Positions 16,455 to 39,030 of a stretch of 64,000 nt of DNA are shown here, one piece after another; position 1 is the stretch's first letter, and every line of letters begins with the position of its first letter. This DNA is from Escherichia coli (lineage in GTDB: Bacteria; Pseudomonadota; Gammaproteobacteria; Enterobacterales; Enterobacteriaceae): assembly GCF_050320075.1 (NCBI RefSeq), contig NZ_CP190022.1; one strand, given 5' to 3'. Below the pieces are notes generated by a model, which was not told the DNA's origin, did not search any database, and was given only the letters and a program-made list of their open reading frames with translations. The translations under genes and the position numbers were made by a program.

Positions 16455-18011
16455 TTGTACAGGAAAATGACTGGCGTGTCTTGTATTAAAGAAAAATCAA
16501 AATATACTTTTGAGAGAGCAAAACAGTTTTATTTTATGTTGTGGTGTAAAGAGTCACTGATTTATCTGTTGTTTTCTGTGCTTGTTACATGGTGTTGCGG
16601 ATATACAGTGAAAAACACCCTGGGGAATGTGCTTATATTGTTCCTGATGTTGTTGTTGGGGCGGCAGAATGTTATTTCAGCAACGTGTGTCTGTATCTTT
16701 CTTTTGTTAAGTGCATTCTATGCTCCGGTTGGGATGATTTACGGAAAAATAAACAACAGTTTTATTGCGTCTGTAATGCAGACAAATCTAAATGAGGCAG
16801 GTGAATTTATCACAGGCATACCTGTTCTTTATTTTATTGTTTCACTGATTATTGCTGCTTTTACATTCTGGTTCTGGCGTAAGCGTGATAAAAGCCACCA
16901 GGGATTTATCTTTCTGTTGTTCTTTATCGTATTGTCAGTAAATGCATGGCCAAAACGTATGGTTACGAATGTAATGACAGGGATAGCTGAAACCAGAGAA
17001 GAAATGATGCGATATGAATCGCTGAAACACAATCAGAAAGATTCATGGGATATTGTGAATGTGGAGAAGAAATATAAAACCATAATTATCGTAATTGGTG
17101 AAAGTGTCAGACGGGATTATCTTTCTGTTTATGGGTATCCTTTGCCGACAACACCATGGTTGAATTCTGCTCCGGGTATATTTATTAATGGGTATTTCTC
17201 CGCAGCTCCGAATACGATAGGTTCACTCAGCAGAACACTGACTCTTGATTACACTGAAACAGGTAATCCGGGTAATAATATTGTTACGCTTGCCAGAAAA
17301 GCCGGATATGAGACGTGGTGGATATCAAATCAGGGCTCTTTAGGGCGACATGATACGCTGATTTCTGTCATCGCCGCCAATGCGGATAAGAAATATTTTC
17401 TTAAGGAAGGGAGCTCTTCTTCCCGTCGCATTGATGATGAAGATATGCTTCAGTATGTCAGGGAAGCTGTTAATTCGTCTTCTCCAAAAGTGATTTTCAT
17501 TCATATGCTGGGGTCCCATCCTAATCCCTGTGACAGACTTTTTAATGATGCACAGCCGTTCAGGGAATTATTCGGAAATAAAGTATCCTGTTATTTATCA
17601 ACATTGCTTAAGCTGGATCGGTTTCTTCAGGCAATTTATAACATGACGACAGAGCATGGCGATGATTTTGCCATGCTGTATTTTTCTGATCATGGGCAAT
17701 CCGTCACTTCAGACAGCACCCCTGTGCATCATGCGCCAGGTTTGCGTTCGGGATACGATGTACCTCTCATGATGATGGCCAGTGATATTACTGAGCACCA
17801 CCTCAATCATGTGCATATCAGTGCACGTCGTTTTCCCGAGATTTTTCAATGGATCACAGGGATACAAACCAAAAATCTGCCGTTAAGTTTTTCTTTGTTA
17901 CAGAATGATTTCGCTGAAAGTGTTTCTGTATTCAATGGTGAACGTGACGTTCCGGTAATGTCTTTGCCAGAAGAGCCGATACTGACCGGAAATGCTGAAT
18001 CAGAAAAATAA
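16455..18011 (+). CDS. Phosphoethanolamine-transferase-family (sulfatase-fold) inner membrane protein
   Basis: N-terminal TM helices, then IIIVIGESVRRDYLSVYGY, FIHMLGSHPNP and FSDHGQS motifs resembling EptA/LptA-type enzymes; low GC; exact start uncertain. Confidence 0.6.
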   Translation: MYRKMTGVSCIKEKSKYTFERAKQFYFMLWCKESLIYLLFSVLVTWCCGYTVKNTLGNVLILFLMLLLGRQNVISATCVCIFLLLSAFYAPVGMIYGKINNSFIASVMQTNLNEAGEFITGIPVLYFIVSLIIAAFTFWFWRKRDKSHQGFIFLLFFIVLSVNAWPKRMVTNVMTGIAETREEMMRYESLKHNQKDSWDIVNVEKKYKTIIIVIGESVRRDYLSVYGYPLPTTPWLNSAPGIFINGYFSAAPNTIGSLSRTLTLDYTETGNPGNNIVTLARKAGYETWWISNQGSLGRHDTLISVIAANADKKYFLKEGSSSSRRIDDEDMLQYVREAVNSSSPKVIFIHMLGSHPNPCDRLFNDAQPFRELFGNKVSCYLSTLLKLDRFLQAIYNMTTEHGDDFAMLYFSDHGQSVTSDSTPVHHAPGLRSGYDVPLMMMASDITEHHLNHVHISARRFPEIFQWITGIQTKNLPLSFSLLQNDFAESVSVFNGERDVPVMSLPEEPILTGNAESEK

Positions 18012-34614: not shown

Positions 34615-37600
34615 TCATCGGCCGGGGCTGTGAGATTGTGCCTGTTGCAGAGTTTTTTCCTGCCTGTCCTCCGCCTTTTGGCTGTCAGACCACTCTTTCC
34701 AGGTCTGCTCAAAACCCAGAGAGCGGAAAAGCTTGTCCGGCTGCTCTTCCGGTTTATGGATGGCGGCAAACAACGGCGTATCCTGTTGCTTCAGGTGAAA
34801 CTGCATCATTTGTGGGGCCGGACGCTGATGAGTATTCTCATCGTGGTTGACAGCTTCACCGTAGCCGGCAAACTGCAGACCGTTATCCGTCAGTGCATTG
34901 ATGACCAGCTGACGGTTGTTTGTTGTCGGGGTGGCCAGTGCCGGGTAGAGGGTGCCGTTCAGACGGACCACTCCCTGCAGATGCTCATCTGCGCTGTGGA
35001 CCAGCAGAAGATTCAACTGACGATTGTCCTTATCGGCGGAGGCGACGGCAGGAATCAGTTCATCGGGGGCTTTACCAGCGAGGGGGAGTCGCATTGATTG
35101 ATCCTGAGGTTCTGATGCCGGTTGTCTGTCCTCACCAATGTACAGATTATTGGGAGGATTTTTGGGGGAACGAACTTCCTGCATTATCTGTGGCCAGTGT
35201 TGCTGCATTTGTGACATTACCTGACTGAATGTTTTCATCGGAAATTCCAGGATATGCTGACCAGCATGAGGAAGGTCATTATCGACGGTAATGCCGTTAC
35301 TGACAGGAGTCATGGCCCAGATATTTCGCACCCATTCCGGTTTGCCCGGTGATGAAGGTAATCTCTCCCGGGCCTGCAATGTCAGCGTGACGGGGTCGCC
35401 TTTCTGGTGGTTTTTGACCAGTTCTTCCAGGCCTTTTCCCCAGTATTCCCGTTTGCCACTGCGGTTGGTGAGCTCCACAAAAAAGCAGCGCCCTTTTCCG
35501 GGCGCATACTCTTTTTCTCCGTAGTTTGTCAGGACGGCAGTCACACTTTCACCGGGGCTGAGCTTGCCGGGCGGCTCTTCCTCCGGTGTGTCGGGTTGCT
35601 GCGGCTGTGCACTGACAGGGGCTTTTTCTGGCGCTGACGACGGGGCGGCTGGTTGTTCCGGTCTGTCGGCCCGGGGGGCTTCAGCTTTTGCCGTGACCGG
35701 CGCTTCCGGATGCGGTGTTTCAGCCGTACTGCCTGCTGTTTGTTCAGCCTCTGCCTTCGGTGACACAGGGGGTTCCGGTTGTGCCATTGTTGTTTCTTCC
35801 GGTGACTGGCGGTTGAGTTCCGGCGTGGGTCTGTGGGTGACAATGGCATCATGCACCATCTCTTTTTCCTTGCGGAGTTTTTCCAGTGCTGCCCTCTGGG
35901 CCGGGAGTTTCATGCGAACCTTGATGTCGTATTCGACAATCAGCTGCATGGCTTTTTGTTTAAAGGCATCACTGCCGGTCAGCTCGATAACGCCGCCATA
36001 GAAGTTGGTGGCCACAGCAAGGGCAGCCAGAACCTTTTTGTCATCCGCGCTGGCACCATCCACCATTTCGAGACAATAGAGTCTGTCCAGGAAGGCTGGT
36101 TCGCCGTCAACACGGAAGAGCGCTGTCCTGTCGGGAAACTCTTCGTGCTCAAGATTTTTAATAATCTCGTCCAGGTTGTGCCGCTGCGGACTGTCGGGAC
36201 GGCGGGGCGCAAAGATAATCGTGTCCGGTTCCGCTGACGATGTGTCTTCCGGGCTGTTTTCCGGTGGTGATGGTGGTGCGACCTCCTCTGTTGCTGTTTC
36301 AGCCTCCGTGGGCTTTTTCTCCTGAATAACGGAAGGTTCTGAGGTACGTGATTTCCCACCGGTCAGAAAACGGCGCAGACGGCTGAAAAGCGATGGCGTT
36401 TCAGGGTGGGCTGCTTCATTCGCTGTGCTGGTCTCAGTGGCAGACACAGGACGCTCTTCCTGCAGTTTATCTTCAGCCGTCGGTTCAGCGGTGGCCTGCC
36501 GGACTGGCTGAGTTTCTGCAGGTTCAGAAGGTGAGGCTGTTTCTGCTGTGCCGGTGTTGTGAACAGCAACCGTGGCATCGGCATTGAGCTCCTCAGCGGG
36601 TGCGTTCCTGTTGTCATCGGTGATGTCAGAGGAGTTCTCTGCGCCGGTCTCAGCGGCAGACGCAACGCTCTTTTCCTGTGCTTTATCTTCTGCCGTCAGT
36701 TCAGTGGTCACCTGCTGAACTGGCCGCATCCCGGCCGGTTCAGAAACTGTGTTTGTCTCCGCGTTGTCGGTGTTGTGAACAGTGGGGGCCCCCGGAGTGT
36801 CAGCGTTGAGATCTTCCGCAAATGCGCTCCAGTCGTCAGCGGTGGCCATGGAGACCTGCACTTGTTCTTCAGACTGCGTTGTGGTGGAGTGCTGTATCCC
36901 GGCCGCGTCGGAGAGGGAGGTTTCCGGTGTGTCTTCACTCCGGGGATGTTCTTCTGCCTGCGTGCTCTGGTTGTCAGCGGTGGTGGCAGAGGCTTTTTCT
37001 TCACCGGTATCAGCGGTAGCCACAGAGGCATTTTCTTCCCTGGTATCGGCAGCGGAAACAACGTTCTCGTGTGGTTTATCTTCTGCGGTCGGTTCAGTGG
37101 TTGCCTGCTGCACGGACTGCATCCCGGCAGGTTCAGGAAGCGTTCCTGTTTCTGCTGTGTTGGTGTTGTGAGCGGTGTCTGTACCTGTGGCGTCTGTATT
37201 GAGGTCTTCCTGGTCGCCAGCGGTAGCCGCAGAGGTATTCTCTGTGCCGGTATCAGCGGCAGACGCAATATTCTCCAGTGGTTTATCCGGGGATAACGTC
37301 TCCGTAGTTACTGACTGCAGGGATGCATAGGCGGCATAGTCATCTTCATATGCCTGGTTTTCTGTCTCTTCAGTGTGGATGTCATAAGGCGTATCCGGTG
37401 TCGCCAGCACCGTTTCCGGGGCTGTGCTCTGTTTGTTTTCAGGGGACATTTGTGGCTTCTCATCTTTTACCGGTGTGAATATCAGGTTGCCGATCACGAC
37501 AGCTTCACGGTGGTCGGCAGTGTCACTGTTGGGTGTGGGGATACCGATATGTTTTAACTGTGCGTTCATGACATGCTGAAAGTCGTCCCGTCCCCGGCTG

Positions 37601-38676
37601 GCGTCCAGGTCATTGAAATCGGTCAGTCCCTGTGCTTTTTCCTCCTCCGTAAAGGCCGGAATAATGACTTCGCCATTCGTGACTTCTGCGGCTTTTGTTG
37701 CACTAAAAACCCCCTTGTTAATTTCCCGTTGATGATCGTTGTCGGCACAGAAGACAAAGGGGCTGTCAGTCCAGATTTGGCGGGCATTTTCTGCCACGGC
37801 AATCATATTGCCGGCATCAACTGTCATCAGAACCGGAAGGCCGGTGGCTTCGTGCAGGGAGGCGGCAGTAGCGTAACCTTCCGCAAATAACAGGGGACGG
37901 CCATTTTCCGGGGTTCCGAAGGTGAACCAGTTGCCGGTTTTCTCGGAGTCTTTCAGAATGCGGGCATCCTTCCCGCCGGTGACCGGAATACGCTGGTACG
38001 AACGTATTTCCCCCCGGCCGTTGCTGAAGGGAATAACCAGCTCATTTTTATTGTTCAGCCGCACGCCAGGCGCGGCCCGGATGCCCTTGCGCGTCAGGTA
38101 TTCATGTGCTGTTGCCTGTGGCAACCCGTTAATATAGGAGCGGGCATACCGGGCCTGTTTGTTGTACTGTTGCTGCAGTTTACGTGCGTTATCATCGCGC
38201 TGTTGCTGAGCGAATGCCCGCAGATGCAGTCTGGCCAGAGGATCGTGTTGTTCTCCGCCGGAAAATACCCAGTTTGTGGGACTGTCATCGGCGCTCCGGT
38301 AGTCGCGGTACCAGCCAGCGGGGCGCCCATCAAGATAGGCTTTGTATGCGCCACTTTTGGCCCCTTTTTTGTCATCCCGGGTGGCGACTCTGTGTATGGC
38401 GCCATCCATCTGTGGCAATCCCTGAATAACCAGCCCGGCGTTTTCCAGGACCTGAGCAAATTCGGTGACCGGATCGCCGGCATCCATCGACAGTTCCTGC
38501 GGCCGGGGTAACCAGCGCTCCAGCAGAGAAAGTTCGGTACCTGCCCGGGCATACCAGAGTTTTTTTTCTGGATCCCATGCGACAGCTTTGCGGCCATTTA
38601 ACGGGGGTACTGCATTTTTTACGGCTTCTGTCTCCTCAGGCGGGACAGCAAGCCAGGTACGATATCTGGACTTCAT
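34615..38676 (-). CDS. sogL: Sog DNA primase (SogL; SogS would arise from an internal in-frame start)
   Basis: 1353 aa; N-terminal DnaG-type TOPRIM motifs FAEGYATAASL and FCADNDHQ; long acidic repetitive middle region. Confidence 0.8.
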   Translation of the reverse strand: MKSRYRTWLAVPPEETEAVKNAVPPLNGRKAVAWDPEKKLWYARAGTELSLLERWLPRPQELSMDAGDPVTEFAQVLENAGLVIQGLPQMDGAIHRVATRDDKKGAKSGAYKAYLDGRPAGWYRDYRSADDSPTNWVFSGGEQHDPLARLHLRAFAQQQRDDNARKLQQQYNKQARYARSYINGLPQATAHEYLTRKGIRAAPGVRLNNKNELVIPFSNGRGEIRSYQRIPVTGGKDARILKDSEKTGNWFTFGTPENGRPLLFAEGYATAASLHEATGLPVLMTVDAGNMIAVAENARQIWTDSPFVFCADNDHQREINKGVFSATKAAEVTNGEVIIPAFTEEEKAQGLTDFNDLDASRGRDDFQHVMNAQLKHIGIPTPNSDTADHREAVVIGNLIFTPVKDEKPQMSPENKQSTAPETVLATPDTPYDIHTEETENQAYEDDYAAYASLQSVTTETLSPDKPLENIASAADTGTENTSAATAGDQEDLNTDATGTDTAHNTNTAETGTLPEPAGMQSVQQATTEPTAEDKPHENVVSAADTREENASVATADTGEEKASATTADNQSTQAEEHPRSEDTPETSLSDAAGIQHSTTTQSEEQVQVSMATADDWSAFAEDLNADTPGAPTVHNTDNAETNTVSEPAGMRPVQQVTTELTAEDKAQEKSVASAAETGAENSSDITDDNRNAPAEELNADATVAVHNTGTAETASPSEPAETQPVRQATAEPTAEDKLQEERPVSATETSTANEAAHPETPSLFSRLRRFLTGGKSRTSEPSVIQEKKPTEAETATEEVAPPSPPENSPEDTSSAEPDTIIFAPRRPDSPQRHNLDEIIKNLEHEEFPDRTALFRVDGEPAFLDRLYCLEMVDGASADDKKVLAALAVATNFYGGVIELTGSDAFKQKAMQLIVEYDIKVRMKLPAQRAALEKLRKEKEMVHDAIVTHRPTPELNRQSPEETTMAQPEPPVSPKAEAEQTAGSTAETPHPEAPVTAKAEAPRADRPEQPAAPSSAPEKAPVSAQPQQPDTPEEEPPGKLSPGESVTAVLTNYGEKEYAPGKGRCFFVELTNRSGKREYWGKGLEELVKNHQKGDPVTLTLQARERLPSSPGKPEWVRNIWAMTPVSNGITVDNDLPHAGQHILEFPMKTFSQVMSQMQQHWPQIMQEVRSPKNPPNNLYIGEDRQPASEPQDQSMRLPLAGKAPDELIPAVASADKDNRQLNLLLVHSADEHLQGVVRLNGTLYPALATPTTNNRQLVINALTDNGLQFAGYGEAVNHDENTHQRPAPQMMQFHLKQQDTPLFAAIHKPEEQPDKLFRSLGFEQTWKEWSDSQKAEDRQEKTLQQAQSHSPGR
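36400..37330. repeat. Three to four imperfect ~250-330 bp direct repeats inside sog
   Basis: Repeated DNA blocks (e.g. ...gcagacgcaacgctcttttcctgtgctttatcttctgccgtcagttcagtgg...) encoding ...EPAGM(Q/R)(S/P)VQQ(A/V)TTE(P/L)TAEDK... several times; coordinates approximate. Confidence 0.7.
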
Positions 38677-38739
38677 GTCGTTCTCCGGGGATTAAAGATG
38701 AGGGCGTTGTGATACGCCGGGATGATGGACAAAAGAGGG

Positions 38740-39030
38740 CTATTCTGGTCCGTGCCATTCACGGGGTAATTCTGTGCGGTGTCGGTACCACCAGGGACGT
38801 CCTGATGCCTGCTTACCCTGAAGCAGGCTGTACAGACGTATACAGAGGGTGCGGACTGTCCAGCCGGAATATCCCAGGAGCATAAAAAACAGCAGAATGC
38901 CGCTGCACACCCAGAATGTCGTTTTTGACGGATACGGAAACAACAGCAGGTAAATCATGGTAAACGGCAGGGGGACACCATAAATGTTGAGCGGTGGAGT
39001 TACATCCCGCCAGAAGCCTTCGCGTTTCAT
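38740..39030 (-). CDS. traK: TraK, IcmT-like small membrane protein
   Basis: 96 aa, two hydrophobic segments; ATGA overlap with traJ. Confidence 0.55.
   Translation of the reverse strand: MKREGFWRDVTPPLNIYGVPLPFTMIYLLLFPYPSKTTFWVCSGILLFFMLLGYSGWTVRTLCIRLYSLLQGKQASGRPWWYRHRTELPREWHGPE

Follow-up and report, generated by a model that had tools for sequence, protein, structure and literature searches.

The sog gene in a 64,000-nucleotide (nt) stretch of Escherichia coli DNA (NCBI RefSeq assembly GCF_050320075.1, contig NZ_CP190022.1; this whole stretch is hereafter the window) carries a genuine tandem repeat array in its central region, composed of four full units and one truncated unit arranged head-to-tail and in frame. 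The window is from an E. coli plasmid of the IncK2/Z (I-complex) type. Based on the analyses below, the array accounts for most of an acidic linker between the primase and LPD7 C-terminal domains of Sog. This linker is predicted to be disordered, and we consider it likely that its degenerate units act as a flexible spacer whose length changes are rare and near-neutral.

The array is contiguous from position 36409 to 37323 on the minus strand, corresponding to amino acids (aa) 452–756 of Sog. Unit boundaries were set from an alignment of the units and a scan with a hidden Markov model (HMM) built from the window units, and five abutting HMM matches (u1 to u5, Table 1) tiled the array without gaps. 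The full units were 171–222 base pairs (bp) in length, with ~70 aa (~200 bp) being typical, and the truncated unit was 102 bp; pairwise identities between units were 64–82%. Self-BLASTN of the coding sequence (CDS) gave five in-frame off-diagonal matches within CDS nt 1390–2258 (window 36419–37287), which were 69–77% identical and had E-values down to 1.8e-26, and a separate repeat search of the DNA recovered matching repeat families. In addition, alignment of one half of the array with the other at the protein level gave z = 13.7 against shuffles. Positions conserved between units included the invariant E62 and T63 and the blocks SEPA and EDLNAD, and the longest exact identity between any units in the window was 8–16 nt. 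The truncated unit, u5, closed the array in every allele examined.

A first-pass annotation, made from the letters of the window alone, had described three to four direct repeats of ~250–330 bp at 36400–37330 within sog. The presence of large in-frame repeats was confirmed and those bounds were nearly exact, but the units proved to be smaller and more numerous than had been thought; the earlier size estimate corresponds to the lengths of the BLAST high-scoring segment pairs (191–267 bp). Its description of an acidic Thr/Ala/Glu-rich module agreed with the composition of the array (T 16%, A 16%, E 12%, S 9% and D 7%).

We considered whether the repeats could be an artifact of assembly or a chance effect of low complexity, as the composition of the region is skewed and the program Tandem Repeats Finder, even at its lowest threshold, had no match there. 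The silence of that program is explained by the divergence of the units and by the indels through which they differ. The top off-diagonal score was 109 bits, as against a mean of 9 and a maximum of 30 bits in codon shuffles of the linker (n = 200). Furthermore, the identical 4062-bp gene was present in hundreds of independently assembled complete plasmids, and units of this divergence are too dissimilar for an assembler to collapse. Based on the shuffle scores and the independent assemblies we rejected this explanation, to which we attach next to no probability.

The 1353-aa open reading frame (ORF) with the array was identified from its sequence as the Sog primase of an I-complex plasmid because of its gene position, the identities of its domains, an EGYATA motif, and its DUF5710 and LPD7 domains. 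The ORF was 100% identical to a CDS labelled "LPD7 domain-containing protein" in the E. coli plasmid NZ_MG825371, whose typing is IncK2/Z, MOBP and MPF_I. In that plasmid, sog is preceded by a traJ/traK-like pair and followed by homologues of traL, traM and traN, and comparison of the annotation of this identical record showed that the position between traK and traL matches that in R64 and ColIb-P9. N-terminal residues 3–422 were 74% identical to residues 5–424 of ColIb-P9 Sog and the C-terminal 536 aa (residues 818–1353) were 59% identical; the middle of the window protein was unalignable with ColIb-P9 Sog in the protein alignment. EGYATA is reportedly a marker of the primases of I- and P-type plasmids. 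The first-pass naming of the gene as sog was therefore sound.

ColIb-P9 Sog has primase activity, and hundreds of copies of it are exported into recipient cells (PMC8406263); by similarity, the window protein would be expected to have both primase activity and transfer into recipients. In R64, two proteins are produced, SogL of 1255 aa and SogS of 844 aa, the latter via in-frame re-initiation (PMC6112013); the R64 SogS start is therefore Met412. Translation of a SogS may likewise begin at Met410 of the window protein, in which the C-terminal region common to SogL and SogS, with LPD7, is present. The array starts 42 codons downstream of Met410 and, if SogS is made, would occupy the middle of SogL and lie near the N-terminus of SogS.

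Comparison with the Sog proteins of IncI1 plasmids

The Sog proteins of the IncI1 plasmids R64 and ColIb-P9 resembled that of the window in gene position, primase domain, EGYATA motif, LPD7 C-terminal domain, SogS methionine and the possession of an acidic linker predicted to be disordered. The linkers themselves were of different construction. In R64 and ColIb-P9 the linker is 301 aa, S/P/E-rich (S 13%, P 13%, E 13%, A 10%), acidic and of low complexity, whereas in the window it is 359 aa, T/A/E-rich and made of 4.5 tandem units. Self-BLASTN gave no nucleotide self-matches in the sog genes of R64 and ColIb-P9, there were 0 matches of the unit HMM to their Sog proteins, and comparison of the two halves of the R64 linker gave no sign of an older hidden repeat (z = -0.1). 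As the reference proteins are without repeats and are 1255 aa in length, they did not share the repeats and length of the window protein, the one outcome that the first-pass annotation had named as speaking against its proposal. The window protein was, as had been suggested there, longer than ColIb-P9 Sog, although the repeats account for less of the difference than was implied: only 58 of the 98 extra residues are in the linker, and the other 40 are distributed between the C-terminal domain and the segment that follows the array.

The window and R64 linkers had marginal colinear similarity (z = 2.6) and were barely alignable. Their net charges were close, at about -60 for the window (359 aa) and -56 for R64 (301 aa) when calculated between shared anchor motifs, and -54 (aa 410–790) versus -56 with slightly different boundaries. 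Thus, it is the composition and charge of the linker, rather than its sequence, that are conserved between IncI1 plasmids and the clade of the window.

Two short motifs were the only linker features common to the window and IncI1 Sog. One is YEDDYAAYASL in the window (aa 441–456) and YENYSAYQEL in R64 (aa about 632–645), and the other is ADDWSAFAEDL in the window (aa 611–626) and DKDWREFEAEL in R64 (aa about 520–533). The motifs are in reversed order in the two lineages and each is on a short predicted helix, in surroundings that are otherwise unstructured. Judged from these sequences, this arrangement hints at conserved binding motifs and at a linker that was at some time rearranged or circularly permuted.

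Length variation and history of the array

The first-pass annotation had proposed that the repeats offer a route to length variation by recombination, and comparison of repeat number among plasmids supported this, with natural alleles having two to seven unit matches and hybrid junctions in register. Such variation was rare. The array was contained in 444 records of PLSDB and, in an evenly spaced sample of 60 of these, 45 (three quarters) had exactly the window length for the region; the deviating records included differences of +36, -216 and about +120 bp. We then compared about 210 Sog sequences of >1000 aa, assembled from fetched variants and two protein searches. Proteins with two unit hits were 1150–1156 aa, those with three 1222–1223 aa, those with four 1233–1284 aa, those with five (the majority) 1296–1355 aa, those with six 1365 and 1405 aa, and those with seven 1458 and 1463 aa. 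In nearly all complete repeat-type proteins the non-linker part was 994 aa, and the linker ranged from 156 to 469 aa, with net charges among alleles of -38 to -80. All complete variant alleles examined were uninterrupted ORFs in which the length changes kept the sog frame.

A second low-complexity stretch, which is P/A/E-rich and non-repetitive, was found at aa about 962–1040 (window about 35557–35793), within the constant 994-aa part. IncI1-type Sog fell into one cluster at 90% identity (10,386 sequences), and every complete member sampled from it was 1255 aa. Since the sampled IncI1 proteins keep a constant length, as does the non-linker part with the non-repetitive P/A/E-rich stretch in nearly all complete alleles, we concluded that length polymorphism goes with the repeat architecture and not with disorder alone.

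The Sog proteins of other IncB/O/K/Z plasmids (e.g., pO113, pDW54_2, pH2332-107 and the IncK2 blaCMY-2 plasmids) had the same array architecture and the same 994-aa part as that of the window, and hundreds of IncB/O/K/Z-type records were 95–100% identical over the full 4062 bp. Their alleles differed in the number (two to seven) and composition of units, with pO113 and pDW54_2 each encoding a protein of 1338 aa. The seven-unit array is no isolated case, as it was present in five PLSDB records, which represent two lineages, and also in a 160-sequence protein cluster.

At least 13 distinct unit-scale hybrid junctions and one gain of a 12-aa sub-repeat were resolved, and the junctions were in register at the amino-acid level. 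In plasmid pTB-nb2 (Sog of 1281 aa), u4 was cleanly missing, and the DNA junction was located at a TCTGAACC shared by a window-like u3 and the u4 of a different allele, downstream of which the sequence is that of the different allele. The sog gene of pTB-nb2 was 96.6% identical to that of the window upstream of the junction and 88% identical downstream; from its sequence, it looks like the product of an unequal exchange between different alleles. Other variants had the head of u2 fused to the tail of u4 (P0078), the head of u1 fused to the tail of u2 (P0077), u1 followed by a hybrid of the u2 head and u5 (P0155), or, against a background resembling pDW54_2, the head of u1 fused to the tail of u4 (P0147 and P0178), and further hybrid units were found in P0167, P0146, P0200, P0160 and P0122. 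P0044 differed from P0065 by one additional 74-aa unit. In pOV-CH82 (1463 aa) and P0001, one allele type supplied u1 through the head of u4 and another supplied the tail of u2 through u5, a gain of 120 aa, and in pB17EC0268 a third copy of the 12-aa sub-repeat gave a Sog of 1365 aa.

Many of the "partial" Sog proteins in short-read assemblies stop near residue ~650, close to the u3/u4 boundary, as in fragments of 651 and 653 aa on contigs of ~2 kb (public protein clusters P0016 and P0001). Contig breaks thus seem to be common in the array or its vicinity, and may arise where two alleles coexist. Partial Sog proteins were also present in the IncI1 cluster, so they are not specific to the array.

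Across alleles, the units grouped mostly by position, with orthologous units being 75–89% identical and paralogous units 64–87% identical. The array must therefore be older than the divergence of the main alleles, and it has not been subject to strong homogenization; strong concerted evolution of the units was rejected on the same grounds, as units of one allele mostly did not group together. In E. coli, exchange that depends on RecA generally needs exact identity longer than 8–16 nt to be efficient, and the short identities between units fit with most plasmids sharing one length. Rearrangement of the array is recurrent but rare. We also rejected the possibility that the array is a hypermutable contingency locus, given the 64–82% identity of its units, their exact runs of no more than 16 nt and the prevalence of a single length. 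Coding variable-number tandem repeat (VNTR) and contingency loci of bacterial surface proteins are similar in having in-frame head-to-tail units, copy-number polymorphism and in-register recombination. Compared with those loci, the units of Sog are old and divergent, change is rare and phase-variable behavior was not seen, and Sog is a cytoplasmic, exported DNA-processing protein rather than a surface antigen.

Synonymous divergence shifted abruptly along sog in several allele pairs; between pOV-CH82 and the window, for example, values were 0.0035 for the primase domain, 0.10 for the array and 0.049 for the C-terminal domain. The sog alleles are therefore mosaics, a pattern that indicates frequent homologous exchange of sog segments between I-complex plasmids. 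A search of 1.84 billion representative proteins with the unit profile gave 14 matches, mostly to fragments, and all were best aligned to Sog. The repeat unit is private to one Sog clade (I-complex, IncB/O/K/Z), and as the profile matched Sog only, we dropped the idea that the module is common to other exported proteins.

Predicted disorder, constraint and possible roles of the array

AlphaFold2 modelling of aa 330–960 gave a predicted local distance difference test (pLDDT) score of ~30 and essentially no secondary structure across aa 383–813, and the LPD7 domain (about aa 819–949), which served as an internal control in the same run, had a pLDDT of 82–92. The input alignment was shallow, with 11 closely related sequences. 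The only helices predicted in the linker were at aa 440–453 (NQAYEDDYAAYASL), aa 617–619 (in DDWSAF) and aa 763–772 (LFSRLRRFLT), and these coincided with islands that were at least 98% conserved among 60 unique five-unit alleles. Composition pointed in the same direction: aa 410–790, with a net charge of -54 and 11.8% bulky hydrophobic residues, were on the disordered side of the charge–hydropathy boundary, and the array itself (aa 452–756) had a mean hydropathy of 0.400, below the boundary of 0.471, a net charge of -49 and 2 aromatic residues in 305. There was no match to the linker in Pfam, NCBIfam or PDB sequence searches. A folded DNA mimic of the ArdA/Ocr type was rejected, as the linker had no family match, no PDB relative and was predicted to be disordered.

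The conserved islands in the linker were at aa 441–456, 582–587 and 611–626. YxxYxAY motifs akin to NQAYEDDYAAYASLQS, which heads the array, were present in the linkers of R64, ColIb-P9 and the Salmonella lineage. The ATADDWSAFAEDLNAD motif, which resembles DKDWREFEAEL of R64, was lost from several short natural alleles. The ratio of non-synonymous to synonymous substitution rates (dN/dS) was 0.39–0.81 in the array and 0.08–0.48 in the two domains, or in round terms about 0.5 versus 0.1–0.3, so that constraint on the array is relaxed but not absent.

Several other roles for the array were weighed. The polyanionic array could be an intramolecular mimic of nucleic acid that, in the donor, covers the C-terminal part of Sog that binds DNA, or that keeps Sog extended and soluble for secretion, and that is displaced on meeting the transferred single strand. 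The acidic tails of single-strand-binding (SSB-type) proteins are a model for such a displaceable mimic. The predicted disorder and a net negative charge for roughly every six residues, the retention of net charge between the unrelated linkers of the window and R64, and the proposal that Sog coats the transferred strand (PMC6112013) are all compatible with this idea; however, it is purely analogical and natural alleles tolerate a twofold change in net charge, and we regard it as possible but unlikely. The copy number of the units might instead be selected to set linker length and charge, and so to adjust type IV export, stability or host-specific activity of Sog, in line with the first-pass suggestion that the linker may tune transport or stability. 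The wide ranges of linker length and charge among alleles that persist in nature would favor such adaptive tuning, as would the occurrence of the seven-unit allele in at least two lineages and in a 160-sequence cluster, and the export of hundreds of copies to recipients (PMC8406263). Yet the short exact identities between units make frequent switching impossible, about three quarters of plasmids have a single length, no association with host or source was found, and short alleles without the conserved DDWSAF motif are still present on large contigs. In addition, deletion of sog in R64 reduces transfer only about tenfold (PMC6112013). Tuning by selection is thus improbable on the present evidence. 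The two ideas can be combined, in that the array might be a tunable polyanionic module in which unit number sets the charge and reach of a nucleic-acid-mimicking arm that controls strand binding or passage through secretion, the two- to seven-unit alleles being selected settings; we offer this as a speculation with a small chance of being correct.

We gave still less weight to the repeats multiplying a short linear binding motif (e.g., EDLNAD...AET..SEPA) through which Sog would bind more than one copy of a partner, for instance a chaperone, the coupling protein or a replication factor of the host. Positions conserved between units (E62, T63, SEPA and EDLNAD) are conserved also across alleles, and short helices were predicted only at conserved motifs, but IncI1 Sog does the same job entirely without these motifs and the number of motif-bearing units varies from one to four. 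We know of no partner for the Sog array units. Finally, the repeats might act at the level of DNA or RNA, as binding sites, an internal promoter or an antisense gene, for which the long ORFs on the opposite strand and in other frames over the array could be cited. These ORFs matched no family above cut-off, and a MinC_C match to one of them (19 bits against a cut-off of 33 bits) was taken as chance. Moreover, in the complete variant alleles examined, length changes always keep the sog frame with junctions in amino-acid register, dN/dS is below 1 in the sog frame, and the array shows no consistent reduction in synonymous divergence, which was 0.03 for some pairs but 0.39 for others. Frame preservation, dN/dS and the family searches led us to reject a function at this level as scarcely credible.

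The flexible acidic spacer remains the reading that we favor. The array would have arisen through serial tandem duplication inside an ancestral acidic linker and would now serve chiefly as a flexible polyanionic spacer, for which exact sequence or length is less important than composition, charge and a small number of short motifs within it. Changes in length would be nearly neutral and would come from infrequent events at short homologies, either unequal crossing-over or template switching, many of them involving two different alleles that are co-resident. Several points weigh against this interpretation. With dN/dS below 1 and conserved islands, the region is not free to drift, and "spacer" may undersell the array. 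The length classes are uneven and five-unit alleles dominate, which could reflect selection for a preferred length or simply shared ancestry. Low pLDDT is supportive of disorder but is not proof of it, the history of duplication is read from the similarity of the units only, and some of the short alleles are from single short-read contigs and could contain assembly errors.

Sog belongs to a well-known gene family, disordered linkers built from repeats are likewise a familiar phenomenon, and the general picture of how I-complex plasmids work is unchanged by these findings. To our knowledge, bulk export to recipients is established for few conjugation proteins, of which Sog is one. Its alleles form a natural series in which linker length varies threefold and net charge about twofold, and this series, together with the charge-conserving IncI1 counterpart, provides an experimental handle on the role of the linker in secretion, DNA coating and priming. 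The array length classes could serve as a simple typing marker, and for I-complex plasmids the repeats may make sog harder to assemble from short reads and its alleles harder to call. Neither repeats nor length classes of Sog were described in the literature that our searches recovered. The LPD7 domain of Sog was defined in a study of the polyvalent proteins that conjugative elements encode (Iyer et al. 2017, PMC5512222), where Sog is cited as a primase transferred with DNA; a term search of that article turned up neither linkers nor low complexity, and its passages on Sog were silent on repeats. Unlike LPD7, the array is not a recognized domain in Pfam or NCBIfam.

Features of the sog region and other genes

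The features identified in sog are listed in Table 1.

Table 1. Features of the sog gene and its product in the window (residues are those of the 1353-aa protein).
Feature	Residues (aa)	Window coordinates	Strand	Evidence or remarks
sog coding sequence (SogL, 1353 aa, 4062 bp)		34615..38676	minus	ORF list and record identity
DUF5710 domain	6–57	38506..38661	minus	Pfam PF18974, E = 1.2e-8, above curated cut-off
EGYATA primase motif	266–271	37864..37881	minus	Motif found in sequence
Acidic interdomain linker, predicted disordered	383–813	36238..37530	minus	AlphaFold2 pLDDT <50
Putative SogS in-frame start (ATG)	Met410	37447..37449	minus	Aligns with R64 Met412; context GAGAAGCCACAAATG
Motif NQAYEDDYAAYASLQS heading the array	441–456	37309..37356	minus	At least 98% conserved, 60 unique five-unit alleles
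Repeat unit u1, 204 bp	452–519	37120..37323	minus	Unit HMM, 88.5 bits
Repeat unit u2, 222 bp	520–593	36898..37119	minus	Unit HMM, 86.9 bits
36-bp (12-aa) sub-repeat, two copies in u2: ADTREENASVAT / ADTGEEKASATT		36979..37050	minus	Repeat search family D2, 36-bp spacing
Repeat unit u3, 171 bp, carries ATADDWSAFAEDLNAD	594–650	36727..36897	minus	Unit HMM, 61.9 bits
ATADDWSAFAEDLNAD motif in u3	611–626	36799..36846	minus	Conserved in five-unit alleles
Repeat unit u4, 216 bp	651–722	36511..36726	minus	Unit HMM, 93.7 bits
Truncated last unit u5, 102 bp	723–756	36409..36510	minus	Unit HMM, profile positions 1–33 only
LFSRLRRF segment past the array	763–770	36367..36390	minus	Conserved in all alleles; R64 counterpart FLDKARGFF
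LPD7 domain	855–935	35872..36114	minus	Pfam PF18821, E = 2.7e-9, above curated cut-off; pLDDT 82–92

Elsewhere in the window, a 518-aa ORF on the plus strand (16455–18011) is annotated as a phosphoethanolamine transferase in the matching record. Its scores against the CptA, EptA and MCR-4 models were far below the cut-offs (108 vs 404 bits; 28 vs 1225 bits), and it is therefore a distant member of the family and not a recognized mcr gene.

The gene immediately preceding sog also varied. In the IncI1 plasmids R64 and ColIb-P9, nuc, which encodes a nuclease of the phospholipase D family, is directly upstream of sog. In the IncK2/Z plasmid, sog comes next after the traK-like gene (window 38677–38740 region) with no nuc between them, and a thermonuclease-family gene is located elsewhere in the plasmid.

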